DNA from: Mustelus asterias
Taxonomy: Eukaryota
NCBI RefSeq assembly: GCF_964213995.1
Contig: NC_135827.1
Coordinates: forward strand, 21,080,001-21,144,000
Direction of reading: 5' to 3'
Length of the DNA: 64,000 bases
The translations under genes were made by a program, and so were the position numbers. Below, piece by piece: positions 29,287 to 63,040 of this stretch. Positions within the stretch are counted from its first letter, which is position 1, and every line of letters starts with the position of its first letter. The notes beneath the pieces were generated by a model, which saw only the letters and a program-made list of their open reading frames with translations, ran no database searches and was not told where the DNA came from.

Positions 29287-29388
29287 CTTTCAATTGTCTC
29301 TTGCAGATCAGACATAAACATATTGTTACCACAGCGATGAATCCAATAACAGTAATGACTGGAACTAGAATGTGAAGCAATGAAGCAA
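29287..29388 (-). CDS. IgSF receptor copy A, exon 5: uncharged transmembrane exon (VASLLHILVPVITVIGFIAVVTICLCLICKRQLK|G)
   Basis: Acceptor tctctttcacag|TT, donor G|gtaaaa; 102 nt, phase 1-1, open; hydrophobic run followed by basic KRQLK. Too short for the ORF track; translated by hand. Confidence 0.85.
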
Positions 29389-29674
29389 CTGTGAAAGAGA
29401 AAATAAATCATGATGAAATCACAATTAATGACAAGAATCATAACATTTAAACAACGTATTTGAAGTGCTAGAGGATGTCACTGAGAGGCATGAATAAATG
29501 TCATATGAATGCAATTCTTTAAATGTTTATTTGACAACAGTGTAGCCATTTTCTTCAATTTTGTACCCATCACATTGCAATTAATCGATAACATCGCCTA
29601 GGTTCATCTTCTAATTGCTGTGCCAAACACTAAAAAGTGCTGTGGAAAAGCAAATTGCTGATGTTAAGGCTATA

Positions 29675-30090
29675 TATCTGGGGCTGTACTCGATGGAGTT
29701 CAGAAGGATGAGGGGGGGATCTTATTGAAACTTATAGAATACTGAAAGGCCTCAATAGAGTGGACGTGGGGAAGATGTTTCCATCAGTAAGAGAGATTAG
29801 GATCCGAGGGCATAGCCTCAGAGTAAAGGGACGACACTTTAGAATGGAGAATTTCTTCAGCCAGAGGGTGGTGAATCTGTGGAATTCACTGCCACAAAAG
29901 GCTGTGGAGGACAGGTCATTCATGTATTTAAGGCAGAGATATATAGGTTCTTGATTGGTAAAGTGGTCAAAGGGTACGGGGAAAAGGCGGGCGAATGGGG
30001 TTGAGAAACTAATCAGCCATGATTGAATGGCGGCGGAACAGACTCGATGGGCTAAATGGCCTATTTCTGTTCCTATATCTTATGGTCTTA
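29675..30090 (+). mobile_element. CR1/HER1 LINE 3' end in the copy A exon4-TM intron
   Basis: GLYSMEFRRMR...FFSQRVVNLWNSLPQKAVE and tail. Confidence 0.85.
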
Positions 30091-30344
30091 TAAAAAATAA
30101 TGTCAATCGTGGACAAATGTGTGTTAACCCATAAGTGGTTAAACATGACCATGTCTTGGGGATGGGATGTATTATTTTCTATACAAGTCCATTTTAAAGT
30201 AGAATAAATATTACAAGCCTACACATTCTGAGCCCAAGAAAGAAGATACTTGACAGTTCATCTGTGCTCCCAATTTTCTGAAAGTATTATTCCCTGTAAC
30301 AAACACTGCAATCTTCACACATGTATTATAACAAGCATGTTTAC

Positions 30345-30659
30345 CTTTCACACCTACTATACGAACACTTGCGTTTCTCCAGCCATAGCTATTGTTCGCC
30401 ACACACCAGTACACTCCTCCATCTATAGACTGGAAATTTATCTTTACATTTGAACAATTCAATCCAGATTCAAGTCGTGAGATTTCAGTGTAGTTTTCAC
30501 TGTCCTTCATCCAGATCACAGTGGAAATCGGGTTACTATCCACACAACATTTCAGTTCCAGGAACGAGCCCATTGGGACAGTGATGGAGCTATTGGTCTG
30601 ATGACGATAATTGTCACTGCTGGCCAACCTATACATTATAGTGGGATCTTGTGGTCCAT
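30345..30659 (-). CDS. IgSF receptor copy A, exon 4: C2/I-set Ig domain (Siglec/CD22/MAG-like)
   Basis: Acceptor tttactgttag|AT, donor G|gtaaac; 315 nt, phase 1-1; YGP...LKCCVDSNP...W...GVYWCVANNSYG. Confidence 0.92.
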
Positions 30660-30930
30660 CTAACAGTAAAGATAATGTACACTTAATTTTATGTAAAAAA
30701 CATATGAATATAATGCATACAGAGATAGAATTAGTTAACAAGAACCTGCTCCTACATAGCACACTTCTGATAGGAAAACACCCCAAAATGATTCTTAACA
30801 GTGAAATCAAAAATAAACTGTGTAGAGAGACGGTGATTATTATTCTGCTGGAAGAGTTCACAAAGTGAACTGGGGAGACTGTGGCGTAGCGGTAATGTCA
30901 GTGGGATAGTAATCTAGATGAAGCTTTTCT

Positions 30931-31266
30931 GGGCGGCACAGTAGTTAGCACTGCTGCTTCACAGCTCCAAAGACCTGGGTTCGATTCCCGGCTTGGGTCA
31001 CTGTCTGTGTGGAGTTTGCACATTCTCCTCGTGTCTGCGTGGGTTTCCTCCGGGTGCTCCGGTTTCCTCCAACAGTCCAAAGATGTGCGGGTTAGGTTGA
31101 TTGACCATGCTAAAATTGCCCCTTCGTGTCCTGAGATGCATAGGTTAGAGGGATGAGTGGGTAAATATGTAGGGATATGGGGTAGGGTCTGGGTGGGATT
31201 GTGGCCGGTGCAGACTCGATGGGCTGAATGGCCTCTTTCTGTGCTGCAGGGTTTTTATGATTCTAT
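30931..31266 (+). mobile_element. HE1 SINE present only in copy A
   Basis: Absent at the equivalent position (~54998) in copy B. Confidence 0.85.
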
Positions 31267-32265
31267 GAAAGTCACAGGAGAAAGAGTAAACAGGACAGGA
31301 GGCAGATTGTCAGTATTAGCCCTCATTAGGTGCATTGGTGTGGAAGATAGAAAAGAGAACAGCATGCAGCAGTTGGGTTTGTTGTTCATACAGAGGCAGT
31401 GATTATTGAAAGGCAAGGAGGGAAGCTATGGATTTGTCCAAGAAGGAGTGAAGCCTGAGAGAACACCAGGAGAGTAAGAAAATAGAGGAATAGTGAAAGG
31501 TTAGTGTAAGGCTATATCCAAGAAGAAAGAAATGAAAGGAGGTATGACAGAATAACAGGAAGGGTGAGAAAAAGCCCAATAGAGAGAGAAAAGAAAAAGG
31601 GTGATAAAAATAATTGGGACCAGGTCTGGAACAGCAAACAAAGTGGACACAGGGGAATCCCATTCCTGGGATGAAGGGTTTATCCTATGAAGAAATACTG
31701 CTCAGTTTGGAGTTATACCCATTGGAGTTGATCTTATTAAAGCATTTAAGATTTTGAGGGCACTTTATTGAGTCGATGGAGGGAGAATGTTTCCTCTTGC
31801 GGGGGAAACTGAAATTGGAGACATAGTTTAAGAAAAAGAGGTCTATCTTTTCAGACAAAGTTGAGATTTTTTTTCCTCAGAGGGTTGTTAATCTGTGGAA
31901 TTCTCTTCATCAGCATGGAGTGAAGGCTGAGTGTTTAAACTGATTCAAGTCTAAGTTGAATAGATTTTTGACAGACAAGAGAGCCAAAATTTACATGGGG
32001 CAGACAGGAAAGTGGAGTTGTGACCTCAATCAGATCAGCCGTGATTATATTGGAATGATGGAGCGAGTTCAAAGGCCAAATGGCCTACACCTGGACCCAA
32101 GTCCTATGTTTCTCTGTCCTATGTTCCTATGAAATTGAGGTTACATAGGCATGGCACAGATACCTACATTCTAGCTGTAAAGAGATAATATGGAAGAGAT
32201 AATAAAAGTTAAAATAAAAATTAGCATTACAGAGTACTCAAAATGTAAAAAAAAACCATACTCAC

Positions 32266-32568
32266 ACATAATGTGAAGTTTGATCTCATTTGTCACTGGC
32301 TGGCTGAAAGTCACATGGTTTATCTGACATGTGCAGACAGTTCCATGGTCAGTCAGTTTTGGGGTGATTTCAAGCTGGCTGGAGGCAACAGGTGTACCAT
32401 TCACTATTGCTCTTGAGGTCTGTGTAGTGATGTTTTTTATGATGTTTTCGCCATGACATGTCCAGATAAAGGTAATGTTCTCAAAGTACAACCCCTTGGC
32501 AGAGCAGGTCAAGTTTGACTTGTGTCCAATAACCAAAGCACCATCCCCAGTGGAGATTTCAGGGGGTC
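32266..32568 (-). CDS. IgSF receptor copy A, exon 3: C1-like (SIRP/nectin D2-like) Ig domain
   Basis: Acceptor ctctctcag|GA, donor T|gtgagt; 303 nt, phase 1-1; motifs LTCSAKGLYFENITFIW and CQINHVTF resemble C1-set CxxxGFYPxxIxxxW and CxVxHxxL. Confidence 0.92.
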
Positions 32569-33873
32569 CTGAGAGAGAAAGGAAAAGAAAAGGTAGAGTC
32601 ACGTTACTAGTTAAGTAACCTTCACTTTAGATTAAACAAATCAAGGAACAAAATACATTCAAGAAATACACTCATGTCACTCTAAATTACTATTCAATCA
32701 GGATTATATATTGTAATTTTTAAGTAGTAATTATCTGATCACAGTAACTGACACACCACAGTCCTATGTTTTACCTTACCTACTGGGTAACATTAATGGC
32801 ACACTAAGACAACTTAATGGTAGCAGAAACTTGCCTTATACGAGTTTATTTTGATTAATTTATATTGGGATTCTTCTCTGTGATTAACACCAAGTAATTA
32901 TCAGGTACTTTCAATAGCTCTGACACCTTTTGTTATATTACTTTATGCTTACACTGAGAACAGTTATTTTGTGCGCATTTCCCATATGTGACCTTCTATA
33001 TGTTCTGCTGCAGTGACATCAACAGTGGACACATGCACAGGAATTCCCAAAAGCCTTTGGCAAAAGATAGAGTCTGATACAACTGGAAGCTTATTGGAAA
33101 ACTTCAGTATGGTCTGACAGCATCTGTGGAGAGAGAATAAAGCCAATGTTTCAAGTCCGGGTGACCTTTCAGTCATCCAGGTGAGGTGGTGGCGTAATGC
33201 TGTAACAGTATCAGCGTTTGAAGATGCTATTGGACATTGTGGGCAGGTTGTGATTCCTGACATGACCTTTTTAGCCTCAAGCTGTAGGCTTTCCATGGCA
33301 AATCTCTATTTGCTTTCTGAAATCCCCTGTTTGATATTTCCTGACAAATAGCAATGTATCACACACTTGTGCAATTTCATCATAATTGATTATATGTCAT
33401 AGTTTTGATTAAAGCTTTGAACCAAAGCATTAAAGGGTGAGGGGGGGAGATGTAAGATGCTTTGTCAGAGAGTCAGTGCAGACTCAATGGGCCGAATGGC
33501 CTCATTCTGCACTCTGGGGATTCTATGGTAACTCTTCCCTTTAGAGATGCTGACTGACCCGCTGTGTATTTCTAACATTTTCAAACCTTTCTTGGATTAT
33601 TGATTTTATATTACTGGTCATATATTGAAGTGGAATAATTTGATATTGAAATTCATTTTAAGATGTGCATTTACAACTTCAACATGTAGTTTGAATATTA
33701 ATAGTTTTAAAATCAGCTGTGGGAGCCTTTGTGGCATGATGGGAAAGGTAGCCAAAACAATAAAGAGACAGTAAAGTTGACAGGGAACTATCCCTGATGT
33801 GAGACAGGAATATCACACAATGGAGAAAAGGGACCATCTGTATCAGCTCTGTGACCAATCTGTTGCTGTACGG

Positions 33874-36460
33874 GGAAGCACAGTGGCTCAGTGGTTAGCA
33901 CTGCTGCCTCACAGCGGCAGGGACCCGGGTTCAATTCCAGCCTCGGGTGACTGTCCGTGTGGAATCTGTACATTCTGCCTGTATCTGTGTGGGCTTCCAT
34001 TGGGAGCTCTGGTTTCCTCCCACAGTCCAAAGATGTGCGAGTTAGGTGGATTGCCCATGTTAAATTGCTCCTTAGTATCCAAAATTGTGCACGTTAGATG
34101 GATTGGCCATGGCAAATGTGTAGGGTTACAGGGATAGAATGGGAGAAAGTGTCTGGGTAATGTACTCTGTCAGAGAGAGTCAGTGCAGACTCAAAGGGCT
34201 GAATTGCCTACTTCTGCTCTGTAGGGATTCTATTATCTCTATGTATAAGACCTCCTGTTTTTCTATAACCAAATATATTACACAGCCTTGGTGTCAGACA
34301 GACATTCTGTAGGAGCAGGACTATTTGTCTATCAGGTATGTTTCTGAATAAAGTGTCAGTTACTGTAAACTACACACTGGAATGGTTTCAATCTTTTGCC
34401 CCAACACATGTAATAATGAATAGCTTTAGATATTTCGAGTATTAACTCGAACTCAAGAACAAAGTCTTGAAAAGCTAACCGAGAATGTTATTGACTTGGT
34501 GAATTTTAGCATTCCACCCGCAGCGGGAATCATAGCGGGCGAAGAGCGGATGAAGGAAAGGTTCATTGAACTCAGGCAGGATTTTCCGGTTTCAGGGTGA
34601 GTGAGGCTGGAAAATCCCACCCAAACATGTTTTAACAAATCCAGTAAATCTTAAAAAGAGTAATGTTTGAACGATTGTATAACTAGCTAATATGAAACAG
34701 CGGGATAATCATAGAATCCCTACAGTGCAGAAGGAGGCCATTCGGCCCATTGAGTCTGCAACAACTACAATCCTACCCAGGCCCTATTCCCGTAACCCCA
34801 CGTATTTACCCTGCCAATCCCCCAATACTAAGGGTCAACTTAGCATGGCCAATCAACCTAACCCGCACATCTTTGGACTGTGGGAGGAAACCAGAGCACC
34901 CGGAGGAAACCCACGCAGACACGGGGAGAACGTGCAGACCCTGTTCAGACAGTGAACCAAGTTGGGAATCAAACCCAGGTCCCTGGCACTGTGAGGCAGC
35001 AGTGAAAACCACTGTGCCACCGTGCCACCCTTGTGGTTTGAATATAATAGATATTGAATTTGTAAGGGATTCACCTTAGTGATGGCCTTTGTACCTCCTC
35101 AGACCCTACAGTAACAAGTGATCACAAACCAGGTTTAGAGAACATCATTCTGAACACCAGCACTCATTTACTTGTACTCTTCTGGGTAGCAACACAATTT
35201 GCTTAAATAACCTGGTGCAACATTGTGTGTGTCTGTTAATAATTTTTGATTGTATGAATGGTTTGGTGAACATGTTGTATCTATAGGGGCGGCATGGTGG
35301 CACAGTAGTTGGCACAGCTGCCTAACAGCGCCAGGGACCTGAACTCAATTCCTGGCTTGGGTCATTGTCTGTGTGGAGTTTGCACATTCTCCCCGAGTCT
35401 GCGTGGGTTTCCTCCTGGTGCTCTGGTTTCCTCCCACAATCCAAAGATGTGGGGGTTAGATGGATTGCCCCTTAGTGTCAGGGGGACGAGCTGGGGTAAA
35501 TGCATAAGGTTATGGGGATAGGGCCTGGGTGGGATTGTGCAGACTCAATGGGTCAAATGGCCTCCTTCTACACTGTAGGATTCTGTAATCTATAATTAAT
35601 ACAGACTATACAGTGAATCTTTAAAGTTGCAAAGTCTTCTTACTTATTACATGATATGCAAAGATTTTACCATAACTCTGTATCCGTGTTCCTGGTCCAC
35701 TTCTCTCGATTGGCGGGTAAAGCGGAATCTTCACCACACAGAGATAATTATAATCAGACTGATCAGAAGAAACATTTTCAAGCTTCAGTGATGTAACACA
35801 GTGATTCAAATGACCCAGAGTAACGTCAGGAATGCAGGTCGGTTTATTGCTGCTATAGGAATAGTTGGAAGCCCTTCGAGAGTTTCTGTACCAGTTTGCA
35901 TGTATCCATTGACGAGAAGTTCCATTATAAATAAATGTACAGGTTATTGTGACTGGCTGTCCTCTCAGGACACTGACCAGACTTGGCTGAGTCACCTCCC
36001 CAATGATCAACACACCTGATGGAATAAAAAGCTTTGTCATTTTCATTTTAAGTTGAGTTGGTCCTGATTTTCAATATAAACTGTTTACATCAAAAACTCA
36101 ATTGAAATAGCATGGAACATGAAAGATCCTGATGGCACAGTGGTTAGCACTGCTGCCTCACAGCGCCAGGGACCTGGGTTTGATTCCCGGCTTGGGTCAC
36201 TGTCTGTGTGGAGTTTGCAGGTCCTCCCCGTGTCTGCATGGGATTCCTCCGGGAGCTCTGGTTTCCTCCCACAGACTAAAGATGCGCAGGTTCGGTCGAT
36301 TAGCCATGCTAAATTGCCCCTTAGTGTCCTGGGGTGTGTAGGTTAGAGGGATTAGTGGGGTAAATATGTGGGATTACAGGAATAGGGCCTGGGTGGGATT
36401 GTTGTCGGTGCAAACTTGATGGGCTGAATGGCCTCCTTCTGCACTGTAGGGATTCTATTT
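33874..36460. mobile_element. Several HE1 SINEs flanking the copy A V exon (33874-34240 +, 34709-35030 -, 35285-35590 +, 36133-36460 +); equivalents in copy B at 59225-61375
   Basis: Recurrent head, V-domain and tail motifs. Confidence 0.8.
35671..36015 (-). CDS. IgSF receptor copy A, exon 2: V-set domain with joined J-like motif (EVTQP...TITC...NWY...YLCVVKIPLYPPIERSGPGTRI)
   Basis: Acceptor ttccatcag|GT, donor G|gtaaa; 345 nt, phase 1-1, open; canonical B-Cys, C-Trp and YxC, plus G-strand GPGT. Confidence 0.92.
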
Positions 36461-36531
36461 ATCTTTCTAAGCCTGAGTTCTAAACAAAGTGAGTATTTGA
36501 GACCTGATATTCTACATTAATATTTTCTTAC

Positions 36532-36613
36532 GGTGCTGAATCTATTGTGACTGCCTGTCATCTCAAGACATTGACCAGACTTGGCTAAAACATCTCCCCA
36601 ATGATTGCGATAC
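36532..36613 (-). pseudogene. Degenerate partial duplicate of the V exon 5' end (copy A intron 1)
   Basis: Aligns by eye to 35945-36015 plus its upstream intron; reads GIAIIGEMF*PSLVNVLR*QAVTI; keeps the ttccatcag acceptor and is followed by gtaaga. Confidence 0.75.
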
Positions 36614-37297
36614 CTGATGGAATATAAAGCTTTGTCATCTTCATTTTGAAGTTACTTCCTCATGATTTTCAACAGAAATGGGGAATATTAAAATCTCAAT
36701 TTAAACAGTGTCGAGTTGCGATATCCTTCCAATTGGATCTAATGTAAAAAAAGATTTTCTCAGACTTAATTCTAAACTATGCAACGCTTTGGGACCAGCT
36801 GCTCTGCACTAATATTTTCTTCCATTTTAAATTTGTTTTACTTTGTAAAACTAGACAGATGTCACCACAAATAATCTATAGATTTCTGATGTTACCATAA
36901 GAATCTATAGACTTTAGCTTCCAATTCTGTGAAATGGCTGCTATCAGTGTGAACACTGAGCAATGAATGACACACTTTTACCAAAGATCTACACAACTTT
37001 AAGCAATACAACCCTAATCAGGGTGAGAATTGGCAATCGGTCTACAAAGCATCAACTCAACTGAAATATAAATTATACAGCAGGAAATTTAACCCAGCCA
37101 CTGTGATGAGGGCCTTTGAATAGTGATCTTAACCGAATCATTCAAGTTCAGTCTCACTTGCAATCTCTCTCTTCAGTACAACATACTATAAAAATACTGA
37201 AATATTCTTTAAAAAATGAATCAATTGCCTCTAACATCCATACCCCAGCACTCCGACAATGTACACGTCTCCTGAGCAGAGAGAGAAAATATCTTAC

Positions 37298-37346
37298 CTT
37301 GAACTCCTGTTTGTAAAATGAAAAGCAGCTTCAGCAGGAATTGCAT
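37298..37346 (-). CDS. IgSF receptor copy A, exon 1 (signal peptide MQFLLKLLFILQTGVQ|G)
   Basis: ATG at 37346; 16 codons +1 nt of hydrophobic leader; donor G|gtaaga; phase 1 matches the V exon acceptor; same coding sequence in copy B. Confidence 0.85.
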
Positions 37347-37499
37347 CTTTTCAATGTTTCCCACTGTTCCCGAAGCTGTTTAAACTCTCAGACCCAGGAC
37401 CAGTTATTATCCTGTGCGTCTGTGTTTGAGACATCAATGCGGATGTTCCACCCGGTAATTAACCTGAATTTCACCCTGCAACCGGCAACAACTGTGAAA

Positions 37500-37560
37500 T
37501 ACCATGACTTTCTGCTATCTTAAGGAAGGAAGTTACGTGGGAAGCGAAGATTGCTTTCTT
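37500..37560. promoter_or_regulatory. Putative proximal promoter of copy A with ETS-like (GGAAGGAAGT) and GATA motifs
   Basis: About 170-200 bp upstream of the ATG; also present in copy B (~62410-62470), but that region is duplicated wholesale. Motif matches only. Confidence 0.25.
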
Positions 37561-38057
37561 TTCTCTTTTGATTTAACGGTGTTGTAAAGTTCTACGTTGA
37601 GGAGGCTTTTTAATCAAAGAAAATTAAAGAATCCCGCCAACATATTTCTGCTCCATAATAGCTGATCTAGGACGCTGATTGTAATAGATTCAATACTAAT
37701 TTCAATACTCCAATTATAATACAGTGGGCACCTTACAAGGTTTACATCAGGTTTACTTATCAGGTTTACATTGATTCAAATCGCTTTTCATCCCATGAAT
37801 ACAGTTGTTATTTTCTACATTTACAACACTAATCCTCTACTTATTTGAACTGTGTCAGTTAAATTGGTCAGGAGAATATTTTCTCCTTTCTTAAACTACA
37901 AATAGCTCACACATCTCCCACCCCATCCCTTGTACCCAAGGACCAAAGCTGCATTAATCCACCAATACCTATTTCAGATCACTATTGTCAGGGGCAGCCT
38001 ACAGGTTGGGAGTTACACCACCATTGAGTATCTCTTGAGTTCTTAATGGAAGCAACT

Positions 38058-38129
38058 TCCTCGTTCGTGTAGAGGTTATTATCCTCGTCTGTTACGCTGG
38101 AGACCGGGGTTCAATTCCCCGATGGGGAT
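38058..38129 (+). pseudogene. tRNA-Asp(GTC)-derived pseudogene (anticodon decayed to GTT)
   Basis: TCCTCGTTcGTgTAGaGGTtAtTATCCtCGtCTGTtACGCtGGAGACCGGGGTTCaATTCCCCGAtGGGGA resembles vertebrate tRNA-Asp, with several CpG-type changes. Confidence 0.8.
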
Positions 38130-38145
38130 CTGCCAACTTCCATAT

Positions 38146-39790
38146 GGGCAGCACGATGGCACAGTGGTTAGCACTGCTGCCTCACAGTGCCAAGGACCCA
38201 GGTTCAATTCTGGCCTCGGTCACTGTCTGTGTGGAGTTTGCACTTTCTCCCTGTCTCTGCATGCGTTTTCTCCCACAATCCAAAGATGTGCGGGTTAGGT
38301 GGATTGGCCATGTTTAGTTGAGCCTTAATGTCAGGAGGATTAGCAGGGTAAATGTGTGGGGTTATGGGAATAGGGCCTGAGTGGGATTGTGTTCGGTGCA
38401 AACCCGATGGGCCGAATGGCCTCCTTCTGCACTGTAGGATTCTGTGTTCTTTGATCTCTACTTAGAACCCCACTCTCTGGTGGTTCAGTTAGAATCTCTA
38501 AGGTGGGGCTGGAAGCATTGTTTTCCTCATCACATTAAGAAAATCCCACACAAAGTTTCTACACTGTATGAAAGGTACTTCATGCTGAGCTTCTCACCAC
38601 GCAGTTTGTGAAAGGGAAATGCCTTTCTGGTTAGATTTTCACACCAGTTTCTTTAGTGCACACTGGGGTTAGTTTGTGAGTTGACCCGTTACATTGTCCC
38701 ATTGACATCAATGCATGTCAGAAACTGCTTTCTAAATGCATGTCACAACACAACTGCAGCCTGAAGTCACTGCGGTCACTGTTGAACTACCAGTGCTCCA
38801 CCTTGTGGATAACTGGAACATAGCATTGATAGATTTCTGATGTTCCTCGTGCTAAATTAACCCATCAGCACTCATCCATGTTCGGGGCATGTACTCTGGC
38901 AAAGAGACACTGAAGGAGAAAGGGATGGGAGAAACTAAGGAAGAAATATTCTGATTTAGCAGAGGAAGGGCATTTCAAATAGGAATGTTCTATTATCACA
39001 ATCACAATCATTGAATCTCTACAGTTCAGAAGGAGGCTATTTGGCCAATTGGGTGGGACATTCTGGCTGCGCTCGCCCTGAAACTGGAAAATCCCAGCTG
39101 AGGTCAATGGGCCTTTCCATGGTCCGCCCCTCGCCCGCTACGATTCCCATGGTTGGAATTCCCCCCATTGCACCAACTCTACAACATTTGGCACGGTAGC
39201 ACAGTGGTTAGCACTGCTGCTTCACAGCTCCAGGGTCCCGGGTTCGATTCCCGGCTCGGTCACTGTCTGTGTGGAGTTTGCACATTCTCCTCGTGTCTGC
39301 GTGGGTTTCCTCCAGGTGCTCCGGTTTCCTCCCACAGTCCAAAGATGTGCGGGTTAGGTTGATTGGCCAGGTTAAAAAAAAAATGTCCCTTAGAGTCCTG
39401 GGATGCGTAGGTTAGAGGGATTAGCGGGTAAAATATGTGGGGGTAGGGCCTGGGTGGGATTGTGGTCGGTGCAGACTCGATGGGCCAAATGGCCTCCTTC
39501 TGCACTGTAGGGTTTCTATGTTTCTAAAGGCCATATCCCTGTAAACCCATATATTTACCCCACTAATCCCCCTAACCTACACATATTTGGACCCTAAGGG
39601 GCAATTTAACATGGTCAATTCACCTAACCTGCACATCTTTGGACTGTCGGAGGAAACCGGAGCACCTGGAGGAAACCCACGCAGACACGGGGAGAACGTG
39701 CAAAGTCCACACAGACAGTGACCCAAGGCTGAAATTGAACCTGTGTTCTTGGCGCTGTGAGGCAGCAGTGCTAACCACTGTGCCGCCCCA
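38146..39790. mobile_element. HE1 SINEs (38146-38450 +, 39190-39525 +, 39530-39790 -)
   Basis: Head and V-domain motifs. Confidence 0.8.
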
Positions 39791-40794
39791 TAATCAATGT
39801 GAACAATTATCCATAACCCCAGAGTCAGGATTAGGGCTCATGGGGTAGTATATTATCAAAATTTGTGGATTGGTTAATGGAGAAATCAGAGAGGAGGAAT
39901 AAATGGGCCATTTTTGGGATGGTAATTGTGCCCAAGAATCAGTGCAATTGACTCAGCTATTTGCATATTTAGCAATGACCCAGATGGGAGGAGGATTGAG
40001 TGTCATACACCCAGATTTACAAAGCTAGGTGGGAAAGTGAGCCCTAAGGAGGACACAATATGGCTGCAAAGCAGTGGTAGGCAACCTGCAGTCCAGGGGC
40101 CACATGCAGCCCACAAAACATTTTGTTGACCACTGCCCACCATGGAGTTGCCACATTCCACTTGTTTCCATCCATGTTGTATTTTTTCCTACTGGTATGT
40201 CTAAAGTGCCATGCACATAAAGCAAGGGCACGTGAAATGAGATGCATAGTGATACCAGACAGCATTGACTGTGAGAGCCGTGCGCTCCCTCTGTGTCCAA
40301 TCTAAGTGTAAATATTTCTTTTGTTTTTACCATTTGAAATTGATGACAGCTCCATTAGAAAATAAGAACGATTAAGCATTTTCTATAAATCATTATGAAT
40401 TATTCAGCGTGTTTTCAATGTAATTAATCTTATTCGTGGGGCCATGGTTACTCAACATGCCCGACTTGAGTCATACGGCCCACTGTGAATAGGGAGGGTC
40501 ACACATGTAGCCCACTTACTAGCCTAGGCTGCCCATCACTGCTTCAAATGGATATGAACATTCATTCTCGACTTTGCACCCAAGGGAATCAGACCCTCAA
40601 TGTCAACACTTGAATAGTTCAAACAGATCACTTTCTAAATTCAGGGTAGAAAACACTTCAGTATTTGAGCTCGGAAGTGGCAGAAAGAATATGATGTAGA
40701 AAATGCTAGTCAGAGACTACTTCAGAGGGTCCCGGGCAGCAGGTGAAATGCTGATTGGGTGTTCGAACCTCCCAGGCTATTCCCACAGGGTCAT

Positions 40795-50665: not shown

Positions 50666-50855
50666 TACCCCACCTTCCAAAATATACCCCTGATCTCCCC
50701 CCCCGACCCCCACAACTTCCCGGACCCAATCTGTCTAGCCCTTGACAGCCCCCAAATGCAACCCACCAACTTACTTACCCACTCACCCACCTGCCACCCT
50801 ACCACCCCACCCACCTATTACACAAACCAGCTGGCATCCAAATCACCTGCCACCT

Positions 50856-51800
50856 GTAACGATCCCAGTTATAACTGGATGGGAAGATCCCAGAATGGAA
50901 CCCTAACTCAGGCTGTAACATTTATGTTTCTTTTAGAAAAGGTGGAGGAACAGAATCACATGATCACAAATTCGAATTAACAACAAGAAAAAAAAACATT
51001 TATTAAACATGATGCATTGGATTATGATACAATACTCCTTTACAGTACCCTCCCACCTCCCAGTGTCACAGATATATACAAATTTTAAGATTAACATAGA
51101 TTACAAAGCACATCTTAAGCTATAATGGACTCAGTAACACAAAGTCCCTTTGAACATACATTGGCTGTGTCAAAGTACAAAGCACACACTCCATTCTGAA
51201 CCCAAGTTAGTATGTGTGGATTCCTTCACTGAGAGCCCAGTAGCCCAGTATCAGGCTCAGCCAGTGGAAATACTAAAATTATCATTGCCCCAGTGAGTTT
51301 TCCTGACGTCACTTTCAGCAACATCTCCTGGAATAAGACCAGCCAGAGTTGGCAACCCTAAGATAAGTTCAATAGGGGCCCATACAAAGGCCTCAGGAAT
51401 CCTGGAAATAAAGTTAGTTGATCCCACATCGGCCCCTAAGGGGAAAAGAAAATAAACTGCTGCCATCATCCAAAGGAATCCCACGTTGGACACTGAGGAG
51501 TCATTTCATCTGTGTAGGTGCTCCTGCTGTACATTGAACATTGCTGGAGGTAGGCAGAGAGGGGGCTGGTGAGAACTTTGCTGGCATGGAAAGAAGGGAA
51601 CATTGCTGGGAGCTGGGTGGAGTGGGGAGTGTGAACATTTTTGAGTGCTGGACAGAGAGTGAACATTGCTGGGGACTGGGTGGGGAGGTGAACATTGCTG
51701 GGGTTGCTCTGGTCGCCCTTGTGCTTGGACATCCCAGGTAATTTATTTGCTGCCAGGTAGGTTTCACACCTGCTCTGGAAAGTTGTCAGCAATTTTCTGT
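50856..51800. mobile_element. Possible LTR-element remnant with ~30-bp tandem repeats (gaacattgctgg...) at 51535-51710
   Basis: TGTAACGA start, minus-strand AATAAA, imperfect tandem units; no coding motif recognised. Confidence 0.3.
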
Positions 51801-52644
51801 AAAAACTAGGGTGAGTGTAGCAGAAACAGCCCAGATCGCTGTGGTTTGAATAATCTGATCCCACTGTCATCAGAACCATGGAACATTCCCGATAATACAT
51901 TCATTAACAAAACAGCTATTTGTTAGAAACATGTTACAAGAAATCAAACATATGTACCCTTCAGAAGATAACTAAACAAATCACGTTTGCAATGATTTTT
52001 ATACCTTTTTTTCCCCCAAGGTAAGTCGGATGTCCGATCCAAATCCACCTTTAACTACAATTGTCCAACGAGGCATCTAATTCTTTATTCAGCCAAGGAC
52101 ATTGGAGGCTCCTTCACAATGACCATGTGTTTAAATTTCTTCAGTAATTTCATCACTCCTCGTTGATGTTGCTGGTGCCTTCAAAAGCTTTACCGATAAA
52201 TGGAACAGTAGCTCTCTTTCCTGTTCACATGCACAATCCACTAGGAAATAATTCAAGTCACTTCAGTTATTGGCTTCTTTCAAACTGTTGCTTGGAAAAT
52301 TAAATACAGAGTTTATCTGATAAAGCACAGGTCTCCTAGTTCCTCGGCATTTCAGAAGGAGGCAAACTCTGACATTGTCCATCAGCATCGCTTCTGTCAA
52401 TATCTCTGTTAGCACTGATGAAAATAAATCCCAAAATGCGATGCTCTCCCCACCACCTCAGGTAATTTGTAAATCAAATTTTGATTAGTACCATTAAGTT
52501 CGTCAAAAATACTAGAGCTTCTGATATGTCATTTCACTGTCTTTTGAGTGGAATCACACTTGCATCTTTCCCAATATGATTAATGAATTTATATCTCATT
52601 TAGTAATAGACATAGAAACTTTACTGTCGAAATTCAATTATGAA

Positions 52645-52960
52645 TCATAGAATCCTACAGTGCAGAAGGAGGCCATTCGACCCATCGAGTCTGCACTGAC
52701 CACAATCCCACCCAGGCCCTATCCCCATAACCCCAAGCATTTACCCTAGCTAGTCTCCCTGACACTAAGGGGCAATTTAGCGTGGCCAATCCATTTAAGC
52801 CGCACATCTTTGGACTGTGGGAGGAAACCGGAAGATACAGACACAGACACGGGGAGAACGTGCAAACCCCACACAGACAGTGAGACCCAAGCTGGGAATC
52901 GAACCCGGGTCCCTGGTGCTGTGAGGCAGCAGTGCTAACCACTGTGCCACCGTGCCACCC
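52645..52960 (-). mobile_element. HE1-type V-SINE
   Basis: Full motifs. Confidence 0.8.
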
Positions 52961-53347
52961 CTCATATGTCTCTGGTATCCTTTTTCTGCTGTTTCAGTTT
53001 TTATTGTGAGACAATTTCAGAAAGAAGAACAAAATAGTCACCATTCCCCCAGTTAATTTTATTTCTTTGAACCTGATCTTTCTCCCATCTATTGAATGGT
53101 AATCTGAAAACAATCGGCATGTGTACATTAATACACACACATCTCAGCAATTTAATGGAAAGTTATATCAGAAGAAGTGAAGACTGATTTAGTTGAGAGC
53201 AATTCATAAGGCGAGGTATATTTCTAAAAGACTATAATGATTACATTAGATGTGAAAGCTGAATTATTTTACCTTTATTGATTTGAAAGAAAACATCAAT
53301 GCTATCATGTTTCTTGGTGATTTAAGCTTTACATCGTTACCTGGTTT

Positions 53348-53442
53348 TCAGCAGTTAACCAAACAACTCAGCGTGATTAGAATCAGAATGATCACAGCAA
53401 CTGCAACGAACCGCATAATCAAAATCCCATACCATGTGTGAC
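53348..53442 (-). CDS. IgSF receptor copy B, exon 5: Arg-containing TM exon ending in a stop (GHTWYGILIMRFVAVAVIILILITLSCLVNC*); predicted protein 368 aa
   Basis: Acceptor cttcttacag|GT, phase 1; hydrophobic helix with a single Arg; TGA at 53350-53348; donor CAG|gtaacg at 53341 makes a 102-nt exon, the same length as the copy A TM exon. Confidence 0.8.
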
Positions 53443-53568
53443 CTGTAAGAAGTTTGTGAAGGATCAGTGTAGCATTTTTAAACAAGGCAAATAGTAGGTC
53501 CTAAAGATTTCATCTACTTTATTGCATGGTCAATCAAAAATGTTCGAATTGGAGACCAGAAACACAAT

Positions 53569-53924
53569 GGCCAGGATTCTCCCCCCCCCCCAAAGAAATT
53601 CTAAGTGCCGAATTTGAGTGAACAAGGGAATAACCAGCTGTTTTTTTCAGTGGGATTTTCAAAAAGAATCTCCCACATTCTGAGCACTGCAGAGTTCCCT
53701 AGTGAGATTCACGTTGAAAATCCAGCAGCGGGGTCTATTCCCACCAGAGAGGCCGGCAGCATAGCGCTGAGCGGGCCACTGCACATGTCTGCGCCGTAAT
53801 CAGCGCAAGTGCAGCAGCCCCGCACTGCCGGCCTCCCGATCGCTGGCCAGCTACATTGTTGGCCAGGCTGGCAACCCCCCATCGCTGGCCGCGGGACCCC
53901 ACCCCCCGTCTCCCCCCTCTCAGG
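53569..53924. mobile_element. Truncated GC-rich MITE-like element at the copy B breakpoint
   Basis: Begins ggccaggattctccc, like other local GG-terminal MITEs; ends abruptly at the duplicated intron patch. Confidence 0.45.
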
Positions 53925-54476
53925 CCTAAGTCCTATGTTTCTCTGTCCTATGTTCTTATGAAATTGAGGTTACATAGGCATGGCACAGGTACCTAAATTC
54001 TGGCTGTAAACAGAGAATATGGAAGAGATTTTACGTAAAAAACATATGAATATAATTAACGCAAACAGAGATAGAATAGTTAACAAGAACCTGCTCCTAC
54101 ATAGCACATTTCTGAAAGGAAAACACCCCAAAATGATTCTTAACAGTGAAATCAAAAATAAACTGTGTAGAGAGACGGTGATTATTATTCTGCTGGAATA
54201 AGAATATAAGAAGAATGTCTTATAAAAAATAATGTCAATCGTGGACAAATGTGTGTTAACCCATAAGTGGTTAAACATGACCATGTCTTGGGGATGGGAT
54301 GTATTATTTTCTATACAAGTCCAGTTTAAAGTAGAATAAATATTACAAGCCTACACATTCTGAGCCCAAGAAAGAAGATACTTTACAGTTCATCTGTGCT
54401 CCCAATTTTCTGAAAGTATTATTCCCTGTAACAAACACTGCAATCTTCACACATGTATTATAACAAGCATGTTTAC

Positions 54477-54791
54477 CTTTCACACCTACTATACGAACAC
54501 TTGCGTTTCTCCAGCCATAGCTATTGTTCGCCACACACCAGTACACTCCTCCATGTATAGACTGGAAATGTATCTTTACATTTGAACAATTCAATCCAGA
54601 TTCAAGTCGTGAGATTTCAGTGTAGTTTTCACTGTCCTTCATCCAGATCACAGTGGAAATCGGGTTACTATCCACACAACATTTCAGTTCCAGGACCGAG
54701 TCCATTGGGACAGTGATGGAGCTATTGGTCTGATGACGATAATTGTCACTGCTGGCCAACCTATACATTATAGTGGGATCTTGTGGTCCAT
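54477..54791 (-). CDS. IgSF receptor copy B, exon 4: C2/I-set domain
   Basis: Intact splice sites, 315 nt; 4 aa differences (G>D, F>V, N>H, D>H). Confidence 0.92.
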
Positions 54792-55997
54792 CTAACAGTA
54801 AAGATAATGTACACTTAATTTTATGTAAAAAACATATGAATATAATGCATACAGAGATAGAATTAGTTAACAAGAACCTGCTCCTACATAGCACATTTCT
54901 GATAGGAAAACACCCCAAAATGATTCTTCACAGTGAAATCAAAAATAAACTGTGTAGAGAGACGGTGATTATTATTCTGCTGGAAGAGTTCACAAAGTCA
55001 GAGGAGGAAGAGTAAACAGGACAGGAGGCAGATTGTCAGTATTAGCCCTCATTAGGTGCATTGGGGTGGAAGATAGAAAAGAGAACAGCATGCAACAGTT
55101 GGGTTTGTTGTTCATACAGAGGCAGTGATTATTGAAAGGCAAGGAGGGAAGCTATGGATTTGTCCAAGAAGGAGTGAAGCCTGAGAGAACACCAGGAGAG
55201 TAAGAAAATAGAGGAATAGTGAAAGGTTAGTGTAAGGCTATGCCCAAGAAGAGAGAAATTAAAGGAGGTATGACGGAATAACAGGAAGGGTGAGAAAAAG
55301 GGCCCAATAGAGAGAGAAAAGAGAAAGAAAAAGGGTGATAAAAATAATGGGACCAGGTCTGGAACAGCAAACAAAATGGACACAGGGGAATCCCATTCCT
55401 GGGGTGAAGGGTTTATCCTATGAAGAAATACTGCTCAGTTTGGAGTTATACCCATTGGAGTTGAACTTATTAAAGCATTTAAGATTTTGAGGGCACTTTA
55501 TTGAGTCGATGGAGGGAGAATGTTTCCTCTTGCGGGGGAAACTGAAATTGGAGACATAGTTTAAGAAAAAGAGGTCTATCTTTTCAGACAAAGTTGAGAT
55601 TTTTTTTCCTCAGAGAGTTGTTAATCTGTGGAATTCTCTTCATCAGCATGGAGTGAAGGCTGAGTGTTTAAACTGATTCAAGTCTAAGTTGAATAGATTT
55701 TTGACAGACAAGAGAGCCAAAATTTACATGGGGCAGACAGGAAAGTGGAGTTGTGACCTCAATCAGATCAGCCGTGATTATATTGGAATGATGGAGCGAG
55801 TTCAAAGGCCAAATGGTCTACACCTGGACCTAAGTCCTATGTTTCTCTGTCCTATGTTCCTATGAAATTGAGGTTACATAGGCATGGCACAGATACCTAC
55901 ATTCTAGCTGTAAACAGAGAATAATCAGAGGGGGTCCAAAGTTGAAATAAAAATTAGCATTACAGAGTACTCAAAATGTAAAAAAATCCATACTCAC

Positions 55998-56300
55998 ACA
56001 TAATGTGAAGTTTGATCTCATTTGTCAGTGGCTGGCTGAAAGTCACATGGTTTATCTGACATGTGCAGACAGTTCCATGGTCAGTCAGTTTTGGGGTGAT
56101 TTCAAGCTGGCTGGAGGCAACAGGTGTACCACTCACTATTGCTCTTGAGGTCTGTGTAGTGATGTTTTTTATGATGTTTTCGCCATGACATGTCCAGATA
56201 AAGGTAATGTTCTCAAAGTACAACCCCTTGGCAGAGCAGGTCAAGTTTGACTTGTGTCCAATAACCAAAGCACCATCCCCAGTGGAGATTTCAGGGGGTC
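55998..56300 (-). CDS. IgSF receptor copy B, exon 3: C1-like domain
   Basis: Intact splice sites, 303 nt; 2 aa differences (N>S removing an NGT sequon, V>L). Confidence 0.92.
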
Positions 56301-59300
56301 CTGAGAGAGAAAGGAAAAGAAAAGGTAGAGTCACGTTACTAGTTAAGTAACCTTCCCTTTAGATTAAACAAATCAAGGAACAAAATACATTCAAGAAATA
56401 CACTCATGTCACTCTAAATCACTGTTCAATCAGGATTATATATTGTAATTTTTAAGTAGTAATTATCTGATCACAGTAACTGACACACCACAGTCCTATG
56501 TTTTACCTTACCTACTGGGTAACATTAATGGCACACTAAGACAACTTAATGGTAGCAGAAACTTGCCTTATACGAGTATATTTTGATTAATGTATATTGG
56601 GATTCTTCTCTGTGATTAAAACCAAGTTATTATCAGGTACTTTCAATAGCTTTGTCACCTTTTGTTATATTACTTTATGCTTACACTGAGAACAGTTATT
56701 TTGTGCGCATTTCCCATATGTGACCTTCTATATGTTCTGCTGCAGTGACATCAACAATGGACACATGGACAGGAATTCCCAAAGTCTTCGGCAAAAGATA
56801 GAGTCTAATACAACAGGAAGCTTATTGGAAAACTTCAGTATGGTCTGACAGCATCTGTGGAGAGAGAATAAAGCCAATGTTTCAAGTCCGGGTGACCTTT
56901 CAGTCATCCAGGTGAGGCGGTGGCGTAGTGGTATTGTCGCTAGACTAGTAATCCAGAGACCCAGGATAATTCTCTGGAGACCTGAGTTCGGATCCCACCG
57001 AATCTGAAATGGTGAAATTTGAATTTAAAAAGAATCTGGAATTAAAAAATCTGATGATGACCATGAAACAATTGTTGTAAAAACCCATCTAGTTCACTAA
57101 TGTCCTTTAGGGAAGGAAATCTGCTGTCTTTACCCAATCTGGCCTACATGTGACTCCAGATCCTCAATTCCAACCCTTAGGGTGCTTCAGGTACAAAGTC
57201 AGATTACGGAGTGTCAGTAGGCCTGACACTCCTCAATATATATAGGTGAGACTCCCTGATGGAGCAGGCAATCATTACCTTAATCAGGGAATATTGTGCT
57301 CAAAGACAAAGTTTATTTATTAGTGTCATAAGTAGGCTTACATTCACACTGCAGTGAAATTACTGTGAAAATCCCCGAGTCGCCACATTCTGGTACCTGT
57401 TCAGGCATACTAAGGGAGAATTTAGCATGGCCAATTCACCTAATCCGCATATCTTTTCGAGTGTGGGAGGAAACAGGGGCACCTGGAGGAATCCCACGCA
57501 GACACGGGGAAAATGTGCAAACTCCACACGGGCAGTGACCCAAGCCGGGAATTGAATCTGGGTCCTTGGTGCTGTGGGGCAGCAGTGCTAACCACTGTGC
57601 CACCATGCCACCTTTTTTTGCTCATACTCCAAGAGGCCAACCTCATGCACCTCGTTGAGGTCATTACAGTAGGTTTATGCTTTTTTTCCCCCTCGGTATT
57701 TCACATGCCACAATTGTTGGTTGAAATATTATGGGCCCAGTGCCAAAAAGTTTTCATTCATTGAATGCAATCGGTAAAACAGCATTTATATAGCAAAACC
57801 ACCCACACATTTCACAGAGCACCATTGAACAATGTTTAACACTGATTCATATAAGGATATACTAGGACATTGATCAAAAGCTTCACAATAGAGACATTTT
57901 TAAGAATGGTTTTAAAGGAACCTATCACATATTTGTCCACATTCATTGTAGTTTGTCAATTAAATGTATTGGCTTTGATTAAAACTTTGAGCCAAAACAT
58001 TAACTGCACTCTTTGCTTTAGAGATGCTAACTTACCTGCTGTGTATTCACAACATTTTCAAGCTCTTACTGGATTATTGATTTTATATTGCTGCTCATAC
58101 ATGTAACAATGATGAACAGCATTAGGTATTTCGAACATTCATTGGAACTTGAGGACAAAGTCGGAAATGCTAACTGAGCATGCGGATAAGGGTAAACAGT
58201 ATCTCGTGTGAATTCCAATATGCATTATACAAGAGCCGTCACAATAGACGCAGGATTTTGATGCTACAAATGTAGACAATGTAACCAATTTTAAAAATTG
58301 TAAATTCTCAGAGTTAATGATCAGCAGAAAATGTTGCTTAATCCAAATAAGTATGGAAACTTTACCCTAAACCATGATGGAGATCTTTGAATAATTACAA
58401 ATGGCATCAACAAAACCATTTTGGAAAAACTGCACTAACTTATTGCCAGTGTGCTTAAAGTTAATAATTTTCTCTGAGAACTGAGTTTTATATCTGTATA
58501 TGTGACACAATAAAGCATGTTATTGCATTAGTTATTCCTTTGTGCATCACTCCTGCTGTAACAGTATCAGCATTTGAAGATGTTATTGGACATTGTGGGC
58601 AGGTTGTGAATCCTGACATGACCTTTTTGCCTCAAGCTGTAGGCTTTCCATGGCAAATCTCTATTTGCTTTCTGAAATCCCCTGTTTGATATTTCCTGAC
58701 AAATGGCAATGTATCACACACTTGTGCAATTTCATCATAATTGATTATATGTCATAGTTTTGATTAAAGTTTTGAACCAAAGCATTAAAGGGGGGAAGGG
58801 GGATGTAAGATGATTTGTCAGAGAGTCAGTGCAGACTCAATGGGCCGAATGGCCTCATTCTGCACTCTGGGGATTCTACGGTAACTCTTCCCTTCAGAGA
58901 TGCTGACTGACCCGCTGTGTATTTCTAACATTTTCAAACCTTTATTGGATTATTGATTTTATATTACTGGTCATATATTGAAGTGGAATAATTTGATATT
59001 GAAATTCATGTTAAGATGTGCATTTACAACTTCAATATGTAGTTTGAATATTAATAGTTTTAAAATCAGCTGTGGGAGCCTTTGTGGCATGATGGGAAAG
59101 GTAGCCAAAACAATAAAGAGACAGTAAAGCTGACAGGGAACTATCCCTGCTGTGAGACAGGAATATCACACAATGGAGAAAAGGGACCATCTGTATCAGC
59201 TCTGTGACCAATCTGTTGCTGTACGGGGAAGCACAGTGGCTCAGTGGTTAGCACTGCTGCCTCACAGCGGCAGGGACCCGGGTTCAATTCCAGCCTCGGG

Positions 59301-60585
59301 TGACTGTCCGTGTGGAGTCTGTACATTCTGCCTGTATCTGTGTGGGCTTCCATTGGGTGTTCTGGTTTCCTCCCACAGTCCAAGAACAAAGTCTTGAAAA
59401 GCGAACCGAGAATGTCATGAACTTGGTGAATTTTACCATTCCACCCGCAGTGGGAATCATAGCGGATGAAGGAAAGGTTCATTGAACTCAGGCAGGATTT
59501 TCCGGTTTCAGGGTGAGTGAGGCTGGAAAATCCCACCCAAACATGTTTTAACAAATCCAGTGAATCTTAAAAAGAGTAATGTTTGAACGATTGTATAACT
59601 AGCTAATATGAAACAGAGGGATAATCATAGAATCCCAACAGTGCAGAAGGAGACCATTTGGCCCATTGAGTCTGCAACAACTACAATCCTACCCAGGCCC
59701 TATTCCCGTAACCCCACGTATTTACCCTGCCAATCCCCCGATACAAAGGGTCAACTTAACATGGCCAATCAACCTAACCTGCACATCTTTGGACTGTGGG
59801 AGGAAACCAGAGCACCCGGAAGAAACCCACGCAGACATGGGGAGAACGCGCAGACTCTGTTCAGACAGTGAACCAAGCTGGGAATCAAACCCAGGTCCCT
59901 GGCGCTGTGAGGCAGCAGTGAAAACCACTGTGCCACCGTGCCGCCCTTGTGGTATGAATGTAATAAATAATGAAATTGGAAGGGATTCACCTTAGTGATG
60001 GCCTTTTCACCTCCTCAGACCCTACAGTAACAAGTGATCACAAACCAGGTTTAGAGAACATCATTCTGAACACCAGCACTCATTTACTTGTACTCTTCTG
60101 GGTAGCAACACAATTTGCTTAAGTAACCTGGTGCAACATTGTGTGTGTCTGTTAATAATTATTGATTGTATGAATGGTTTGGTGAACATGTTGTATCTAT
60201 AGGGCGGCATGGTGGCACAGTGGTTAGCACAGCTGCCTAACAGCACCAGGGACCTGGACTCAATTCCTGGCTTGGGTCACTGTCTGTGTGGAGTTTGCAC
60301 ATTCTCCCCGTGTCTGCGTGGGTTTCCTCCTGGTGCTCTGGTTTCCTCCCACAGTCCAAAGATGTGGGGGTTAGATGGATTGCCCCTTAGTGTCAGGGGG
60401 ACGAGCTGGGGTAAATGCATAAGGTTATGGGGATAGGGCCTGGGTGGGATCGTGCAGACTCAATGGGCCAAATGGCCTCCTTCTCCACTGTAGGATTCTA
60501 TAATCTATAATTTATACAGACTATACAGTGAATCTTTAAAGTTGCAAAGTCTTCTTACTTATTACATGATATGCAAACACTTTAC

Positions 60586-60930
60586 CATAACTCTGTATCC
60601 GTGTTCCTGGTCCACTTCTCTCGATTGGTGGGTAAAGCGGAATCTTCACCACACAGAGATAATTATAATCAGACTGATCAGAAGAAACATTTTCAAGCTT
60701 CAGTGATGAAACACAGTGATTCAAATGACCCAGAGTAACGTCAGGAATGCAGGTCGGTTTATTGCTGCTATAGGAATAGTTGGAAGCCCTTCGAGAGTTT
60801 CTGTGCCAGTTTGCATGTATCCATTGGCGAGAAGTCCCATTATAAATAAATGTACAGGTTATTGTGACTGGCTGTCCTCTCAGGACACTGACCAGACTTG
60901 GCTGAGTCACCTCCCCAATGTTCAACACAC
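60586..60930 (-). CDS. IgSF receptor copy B, exon 2: VJ-type V domain
   Basis: Intact splice sites, 345 nt; 3 aa differences from copy A (I>N, Y>H, T>S). Confidence 0.92.
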
Positions 60931-61446
60931 CTGATGGAATAAAAAGCTTTGTCATTTTCATTTTAAGTTGAGTTGGTCCTGATTTTCAATATAAACTGTT
61001 TACATCAAAAACTCAATTGAAATAGCATGGAACATGAAAGATCCTGATGGCACAGTGGTTAGCACTGCTGCCTCACAGCGCCAGGGACCTGGGTTTGATT
61101 CCCGGCTTGGGTCACTGTCTGTGTGGAGTTTGCAGGTCCTCCCCGTGTCTGCATGGGATTCCTCCGGGAGCTCTGGTTTCCTCCCACAGACTAAAGATGT
61201 GCAGGTTCAGTCGATTAGCCATGCTAAATTGCCCCTTAGTGTCCTGGGGTGTGTAGGTTAGAGGGATTAGTGGGGTAAATATGTGGGATTACAGGAATAG
61301 GGCCTGGGTGGGATTGTTGTCGGTGCAAACTTGATGGGCTGAATGGCCTCCTTCTGCATTGTAGGGATTCTATTTATCTTTCTAAGCCTGAGTTCTAAAC
61401 GAAGTGAGTATTTGAGACCTGATATTCTACATTAATATTTTCTTAC

Positions 61447-61528
61447 GGTGCTGAATCTATTGTGACTGCCTGTCATCTCAAGACATTGACCAGACTTGGC
61501 TAAAACATCTCCCCAATGATTGCGATAC
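61447..61528 (-). pseudogene. Degenerate partial duplicate of the V exon 5' end (copy B intron 1)
   Basis: Same sequence as 36532-36613. Confidence 0.75.
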
Positions 61529-62208
61529 CTGATGGAATATAAAGCTTTGTCATCTTCATTTTGAAGTTACTTCCTCATGATTTTCAACAGAAATGGGGAA
61601 TATTAAAATCTCAATTTAAACAGTGTCGAGTTGCGATATCCTTCCAATTGGATCTAATGTAAAAAAAAGATTTTCTCAGACTTAATTCTAAACTATGCAA
61701 CGCTTTGGGACCAGCTGCTCTGCACTAATATTTTCTTCCATTTTAAATTTGTTTTACTTTGTAAAACTAGACAGATGTCACCACAAATAATCTATAGATT
61801 TCTGATGTTACCATAAGAATCTATAGACTTTAGCTTCCAATTCTGTGAAATGGCTGCTATCAGTGTGAACACTGAGCAATGAATGACACACTTTTACCAA
61901 AGATCTACACAACTTTAAACAATACAACCCTAATCAGGGTGAGAATTGGCAATCGGTCTACAAAGCATCAACTCAACTGAAATACAAATTATACAGCAGG
62001 AGATTTAACCCAGCCACTGTGATGAGGGCCTTTGAATAGTGATCTTAACCGAATCATTCAAGTTCAGTCTCACTTGCAATCTCTCTCTTCAGTACAACAT
62101 ACTATAAAAATACTGAAATATTCTTTAAAAAATGAATCAATTGCCTCTAACACCATACCCCAGCACTCCGACAATGTACACGTCTCCTGAGCAGAGAAAG
62201 TATCTTAC

Positions 62209-62257
62209 CTTGAACTCCTGTTTGTAAAATGAAAAGCAGCTTCAGCAGGAATTGCAT
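62209..62257 (-). CDS. IgSF receptor copy B, exon 1 (signal peptide)
   Basis: Same coding sequence as 37298-37346; donor gtaaga. Confidence 0.85.
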
Positions 62258-62968: not shown

Positions 62969-63040
62969 TCCTCGTTCGTGTAGAGGTTATTATCCTCGTC
63001 TGTTACGCTGGAGACCGGGGTTCAATTCCCCGATGGGGAT
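62969..63040 (+). pseudogene. tRNA-Asp-derived pseudogene (duplicate in unit B)
   Basis: Same sequence as 38058-38129. Confidence 0.8.

Follow-up and report, generated by a model that had tools for sequence, protein, structure and literature searches.

Paired receptors are well studied in mammals. In the KLRC/NKG2, PIR and Ly49 receptors a pattern has been described under the name merohomogenization (PMC3210942), and the same pattern has been reported for Siglec-11/16 (PMC5701461). The origins of the SIRP receptors have been called unknown (PMC9652883). In the searched literature no paired receptor was found described for the shark family considered here, which is represented by two genes, A and B, in a 64,000-nucleotide stretch of the Mustelus asterias genome (assembly GCF_964213995.1, contig NC_135827.1, positions 21,080,001 to 21,144,000, hereafter the window). 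The A/B locus is a real paired-receptor locus of a kind already known, and its distinctive part is the readable rebirth of an activator. We propose, with a probability of about 0.68, that A is inhibitory and B activating for the same ligand, B being a chimera of the outer exons of A and the arginine (Arg)-bearing transmembrane (TM) exon of a pseudogene, C, made by recent tandem duplication.

Genes A and B and their relatives

A sequence-only reading of the window had described two five-exon genes. All ten exons are found at the positions it gave, bounded by AG and GT and with their frames open, and both genes are intact; neither of them has only these five exons, A having five more outside the window and B one more at 52220. 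The exons are as follows.

37298..37346, minus strand: gene A exon 1, leader, with ATG, GT donor, phase 1
35671..36015, minus strand: gene A exon 2, V domain in one unsplit exon carrying a J-like GxGT (Pfam V-set/ig)
32266..32568, minus strand: gene A exon 3, C1-set domain (Pfam C1-set, E=1.6e-8)
30345..30659, minus strand: gene A exon 4, I/C2-type domain (matched in Pfam by Ig_3 and I-set but not by C1-set)
29287..29388, minus strand: gene A exon 5, TM without a charged residue, found once in a search of the genome
62209..62257, minus strand: gene B exon 1, leader, identical to the leader of A
60586..60930, minus strand: gene B exon 2, V domain
55998..56300, minus strand: gene B exon 3, C1-set domain
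54477..54791, minus strand: gene B exon 4, I/C2-type domain
53341..53442, minus strand: gene B exon 5, TM with Arg and a stop within the exon
52153..52220, minus strand: gene B exon 6 (NCBI model of B mapped by tblastn; sequence)

The ectodomains of A and B differ at 9 of 337 residues and at 12 of 1012 nucleotides (9 non-synonymous and 3 synonymous changes), in agreement with the 9 of about 337 residues first counted. The TM exons are, as had been read, each 102 nt long and of phase 1-1; that of A is uncharged and splices onward through canonical sites in the mapped NCBI model, and that of B carries Arg348 near its outer end, then a TGA and no tail. Arg348 is residue 5 of the best 19-residue hydrophobic window of B. 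Pfam orders the ectodomain as V-set, C1-set and I-set/Ig_3, and the predicted model consists of three beta-sandwiches (mean predicted local distance difference test score 82). The V domain carries a YPP loop, the canonical cysteine (Cys) pair C42/C109, invariant in a 37-row alignment, and a J-like motif conserved at G123 in 33 and at G125 in 32 of those rows. An extra Cys pair, C77/C89, is invariant or nearly so across the 37 members, is predicted to lie on neighbouring strands and makes a family signature. A decayed 5' V-exon copy with stops lies in intron 1 of both A (36543-36708) and B (61458-61623) on the minus strand, and the GKIWE that the NCBI model of A places at the leader-V join (37298/36015) is not reproducible from canonical splice sites.

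The tail of gene A is encoded by five further exons, located by mapping back the 495-residue NCBI model, which lie 36-54 kb past the TM exon, outside the window, on contig C68 from 21,072,908 down to about 21,055,400, with all splice sites canonical and matching phases. It contains TIYALV, an immunoreceptor tyrosine-based switch motif (ITSM), VSYADI, an immunoreceptor tyrosine-based inhibitory motif (ITIM), and SEYSAI, a distal ITIM-like motif; the ITSM pattern is given as TxYxxI/V (PMC13358205). The VxYADI form recurs in 11 of 11 full-length chondrichthyan ITIM forms aligned, and also in coelacanth, gar, paddlefish and bichir. As predicted from these motifs, gene A is very likely an inhibitory receptor. 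Two repeat arms of about 460 bases, in inverted orientation, lie at 23519-24434 inside the 36-kb intron 5 of A.

The counterpart of gene B recurs in other species. A homologue search returned 12 non-self proteins, nine with a tyrosine-motif tail and three ending in an Arg-TM and a stop; the latter come from Heptranchias, Pristiophorus and Scyliorhinus canicula and, with S. torazame, make four other sharks with such an ending. Because the Heptranchias Arg form ends in CLVNC, exactly like B, the stop is taken as ancestral. The TGA, common also to C, to a further pseudogene, D, and to Heptranchias, is ruled out as a nonsense mutation that B acquired recently. In three of the four sharks the Arg and ITIM forms are on one contig, the locus tags of S. 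torazame being adjacent; a search with C2 and TM together gave no further Arg-type protein. The coelacanth has an ITIM/Arg pair on the same contig, with 96-98% identity in each of the three domains, and since its Arg TM is close to the TM of its own partner, it probably arose separately. In the skate Rhinoraja a short partner, 96-99% identical, has neither Arg nor ITIM. Relatives also occur in gar, bowfin, paddlefish, bichir and the eel-like Aldrovandia, and no tetrapod orthologue was identified among the matches looked up. In gar and bichir a lysine (Lys) stands near the outer TM end, possibly a third route to an activating form. The paired-receptor reading made from the window alone is thus strengthened, by the ITSM/ITIM motifs of A, by the conservation of the Arg-TM and stop in four other sharks and by the presence in this genome of FcRgamma-like and CD3zeta-like TM exons with their aspartate, and the sequence comparisons indicate that the Arg-TM with its stop is old and the on/off pair ancient.

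The first reading had also called the TM exons unrelated. They are better described as diverged paralogues, the Heptranchias pair being more alike than expected against 5000 shuffles (p=0.0004); in the same kind of test the A/B pair is marginal (p=0.04) and the S. torazame pair not significant (p=0.11). Homogenisation of the outer domains, judged by sequence identity, is real at an older level, between A and C and across species. The DNA identity of A and C falls from 91% in V to 81% in C1 and 77% in C2, and the V match reaches only about 100 bases into the introns, the rest of which align only at repeats; between the S. torazame partners the identities are 92%, 84% and 53%. In a tree the V domains cluster by species or genus, and monophyly of the four shark Arg-type V domains is rejected by an approximately unbiased test from which B was left out and in which the partial S. 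canicula V was not included (p-AU 1.2e-47), whereas the shark TMs split by type.

Gene B as a duplication chimera

V and C2 exons of this kind occur four times in the genome: in A, in B, in C, about 15-20 kb past the right end of the window, and in D, which lies on the same contig at a distance of 13 Mb. The TM exon of B is 99% identical to that of C and 97% to that of D, and its ectodomain is that of A: gene B is a chimera of the outer exons of A and the Arg-TM exon of the older pseudogene C. The likeness of A and B had been ascribed to homogenised ectodomains; their introns are as similar as their exons, so that the likeness reflects a young duplication, and exon-restricted gene conversion is ruled out as its cause. 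Self-comparison finds the segment 30085-53903 repeated in tandem at 54217-76820 (extended coordinates), a duplication of about 23 kb whose five blocks show 8/782, 50/1929, 20/830, 73/4284 and 128/12515 differences (1.0-2.6% divergence).

30085..53903: downstream duplication copy (A ectodomain, spacer and B TM region), 97-99% identical to the upstream copy and broken by repeat insertions
53904..54216: duplication junction, in intron 4 of B (BLAST of intron 4 against the region)
54217..64000: upstream duplication copy, in-window part, continuing to extended position 76820

Intron 4 of pseudogene C (C68:21,156,2xx-21,163,0xx) contains the end of the upstream copy. The junction holds two short segments taken from intron 3 (54198-54028 and 54029-53925) and is, as a whole, unique in the genome, which points to template switching rather than a clean unequal crossover. 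A tRNA call by ARAGORN (anticodon GTT, plus strand, 38058-38130 and 62969-63041), possibly a pseudo-tRNA, was duplicated together with the unit and lies about 700 bases upstream of each start codon.

Both C and D are pseudogenes, with a common stop and frameshift in C1; C has an additional stop in C2, and a leader BLAST over the fetched stretches found leaders for A and B and none for C or D. The TM regions of B and C differ at 16 of 1498 positions, those of B and D at 48 of 1494 and those of C and D at 44 of 1494. From these distances and the shared lesions it follows that the lesions are older than the C/D split, which is itself older than B, an order that could be blurred by later conversion. 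A decayed V exon lies near pseudogene D (C68:7,953,900-7,954,148, minus strand), and a second subfamily is represented by an orphan C2 exon at L022:3367-3621 (plus strand), 56% identical to a Pristiophorus paralogue. A search for longer or fused V-exon forms returned only the genome's own model.

Signalling model and competing explanations

In the model that we propose, binding of a ligand by the V domain would lead to phosphorylation of the tyrosines of A and recruitment of SHP-1/SHP-2. In the tailless B, the outer-leaflet Arg348 would pair with the aspartate (Asp) of an FcRgamma (or CD3zeta) dimer, and the immunoreceptor tyrosine-based activation motif of the adaptor would signal. Gene B is likely a real gene and, to go by its predicted TM segment, probably an adaptor-coupled activator. 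By taking over the V domain of the inhibitor time after time, the activator would remain capable of binding whatever engages the inhibitor, probably a pathogen. As to the order of events, C may have lost its C1 exon, then been copied to D (about 3% diverged), after which the duplication (about 1%) would have restored an intact Arg-type gene. An Arg in the outer leaflet prefers FcRgamma or zeta over DAP12, as in LILRA, FcalphaRI and NKp46. As candidate adaptors, two TM exons of the zeta family are present in the genome, both with an Asp; their best matches are FcRgamma (PDB, E=3e-11) and CD3zeta.

L020:1507-1599, minus strand: FcRgamma-like TM exon
L019:1507-1608, minus strand: CD3zeta-like TM exon

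A 2014 survey reported no FcRgamma in sharks (PMC4016189).

Several points weigh against an inhibitor/activator pair of this kind. Siglec-14 signals through DAP12 (PMC13358205). The Arg form was seen in just four of the nine other shark species of the 12-protein list, its absence from the remaining five being read through 90% clusters, which hide members; the split of shark TMs by type (support 80/100 and 99/100) comes from a tree built on 32 columns, with weak support; and the V domains of the Heptranchias pair are just 60% identical, so that tight V matching is not universal. Between A and B, D312H alters the conserved D of what we take to be the C2-domain motif D-x-G-x-Y-x-C, and with just 12 changes and a ratio of non-synonymous to synonymous change (pN/pS) of 0.86, selection on B is undemonstrated. 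The NCBI model of B (XP_078055065.1) joins exon 4 to the exon at 52220, omits the Arg-TM and predicts a soluble protein of 359 residues. Such a structure is what would be expected if A were inhibitory and B served mostly as a secreted decoy or were a short-lived neutral copy, its Arg-TM skipped by an exon 4 to exon 6 splice or unused; the pN/pS of 0.86 would also fit this reading, exon 6, which would be 3' untranslated region with the TM exon and a 21-residue soluble C-terminus without it, is in frame with exon 4, and the Rhinoraja partner tells that non-signalling twins occur in the family. This explanation is nonetheless unlikely, given that the TM exon of B has both acceptor and donor intact and that the orthologous exon is included in the models of four other sharks. 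The TGA lies 7 nt before the exon donor, ahead of the last junction. Under the 50-nt rule for nonsense-mediated decay, a stop so close to that junction, together with the AATAAA in exon 6 (52089-52084), leads one to expect that the TM transcript escapes, and TM and soluble isoforms could coexist. Two runs guessed to be RNA, from other organisms, placed their reads almost all on repeats in 52000-56400, with no exon joints, and are uninformative on expression. It may also be asked whether B is an artefact of assembly, with haplotypes laid in tandem, or a structural variant private to one animal. The slight divergence of the units, with a 47-50 kb stretch at 0-0.3%, would suit such an origin, and no listed contig of the DNA run X11, which is possibly the assembly's own sample, bridges the junction. 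Against it, the window is without any N, new sequence stands at the junction, two pieces of it templated on intron 3, which would be unnecessary for a false join, the adjacency of A intron 4 and C intron 4 is impossible from an unduplicated allele, and three large insertions within 9 kb distinguish the copies. One X11 contig begins precisely at the A/B fork, 54217, and in one intron-3 stretch A-type and B-type depths are balanced (16.8 and 21.1, with 35-39 over shared stretches); read depth, which the sequence-only reading had named as a possible sign of an artefact, fits two real copies, with no single-copy baseline to set the depths against. A second run, X13, has no depth at the junction, but its depth is also close to nil over the TM region that B has in common with C and D, and the run is uninformative. 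On this evidence an artefact or private variant is very unlikely.

The third alternative takes A and B as true sialic acid-binding Siglecs, a shark equivalent of Siglec-5/14, and both matching NCBI models are in fact labelled Mustelus asterias 'sialic acid-binding Ig-like lectin 12'. Profile matches extend over three domains for MAG and Siglec-8, language-model neighbours fall in MAG/Siglec clusters, the top Foldseek matches of the three-domain model are MAG Ig1-3 and CD22 d1-3, and the tail of A has an ITIM plus the distal SEYS motif. The MAG structural match (Z 15.1, root-mean-square deviation 12.2, 282 aligned) is, however, tied with nectin-3, SIRPgamma and Necl-4, all within 1 Z unit, and the best PDB matches of the V domain are immunoglobulin (Ig) light chains. 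At the positions that we take to be those of the essential Siglec residues, the F-strand Arg after the Cys is found in 0 of 37 aligned rows, and neither Cys of the inter-domain V-D2 bridge is present in the 37 rows. The genome's Siglec-like V exons, moreover, are on C20 and C192, the A/B locus being on C68, and a search with a stricter first look did not list the A/B V exons. Siglec membership is therefore rejected, in spite of a fitting three-domain V-C-C fold, for want of the essential Arg and the Siglec Cys, for its canonical V disulfide and for its other contig, and a true Siglec pair is highly improbable, the least probable of the alternatives weighed. In many fish genomes the 'Siglec' names that such genes received automatically are probably mistaken. 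The Siglec-like V exons at C20 0.12-0.96 Mb and on C192 form a large cluster with more than 20 matches.

Relation to described receptor families

Other families were compared as well. The SIRPalpha and UrIg2 profiles match over two domains, the former over the first two with E=7e-38, and the best PDB match of the C1 domain is UrIg2. Membership of SIRP fails on the third domain, which is Ig_3/I-set and not C1-set, although an unsplit VJ with C1 fits; that of CD28/CTLA4 on three extracellular domains against a single V (PMC11599192); and that of UrIg/UrIg2 on one C1, one I/C2 and an ITIM tail, against V and several C1 in an Fc-like dimer (PMC12227049). The family appears unnamed in the searched literature, in which PRARP and Xenopus VJC1 figured as citations in PMC10751288; the 20 matches listed, of 106, for PRARP in the literature were all unrelated. 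In the neighbourhood, a Pfam scan of 300 of 429 frames of at least 75 residues found one JAM-family gene, the orphan C2 exon, a hAT fragment and an RPL39-like frame. The JAM-family V and C2 exons lie at L038:6350-9255 (plus strand), about 126 kb past the right end of the window (best PDB match JAM-A, E=1e-17).

A wider reading may tentatively be advanced, at somewhat less than even odds. Sharks, rays, coelacanth and basal ray-finned fish would share an unnamed VJ-C1-C2 family whose structure falls between that of Siglecs and that of SIRP/antigen receptors; an on/off pair would have persisted in this family from the time of early jawed vertebrates, with the activator re-made repeatedly. The routes would be V-exon conversion in catsharks, an independent Cys-to-Arg change in coelacanth and, in Mustelus asterias, a duplication reviving a dead gene at about 1% divergence. 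Two genes with 97% identical ectodomains and opposite predicted outputs would offer a small, testable model of the birth of an activator from an inhibitor, one in which the recombination junction is still readable, and the single-exon VJ followed by C1 would make them one more candidate among the few known non-rearranging genes that resemble antigen receptors.

The closest comparisons are as follows. Single-exon VJ followed by C1 is shared with UrIg, UrIg2, NKp30, PRARP and Xenopus VJC1 (PMC12227049, PMC10751288); UrIg2, with ten Ig domains per chain arrangement of an antibody-like dimer (PMC12227049), differs from the A/B genes, which have one C1, a C2 and ITIMs. As in the merohomogenised KLRC/NKG2, PIR and Ly49 receptors, signalling ends are kept between species and ligand-binding exons match within species (PMC3210942); unlike in those other, mammalian families, the shark pattern spans squalomorphs and galeomorphs and recurs in coelacanth. 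With Siglec-5/14 and Siglec-11/16 the pair shares a V-C1-C2-like fold, an ITIM and distal motif in one partner and a charged TM in the other, repeated V-exon conversion and an activator that is often a pseudogene (PMC5701461, PMC13358205). Unlike them, it has neither the essential Arg nor the Siglec Cys, its V is canonical with a J-like motif, it lies off the genome's Siglec-like cluster, and B came from duplication fusion and not conversion. From SIRP it differs in a third domain that is I/C2 and not C1. The charged residue of SIRPbeta1 is a mid-helix Lys, and B has an outer Arg. With SIRPalpha/beta/gamma it has in common an unsplit VJ with C1, a multi-tyrosine inhibitory tail and activating as well as non-signalling twins (PMC9652883). 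By analogy, then, the A/B pair would work like Siglec-5/14 or SIRPalpha/beta, while being a member of neither.

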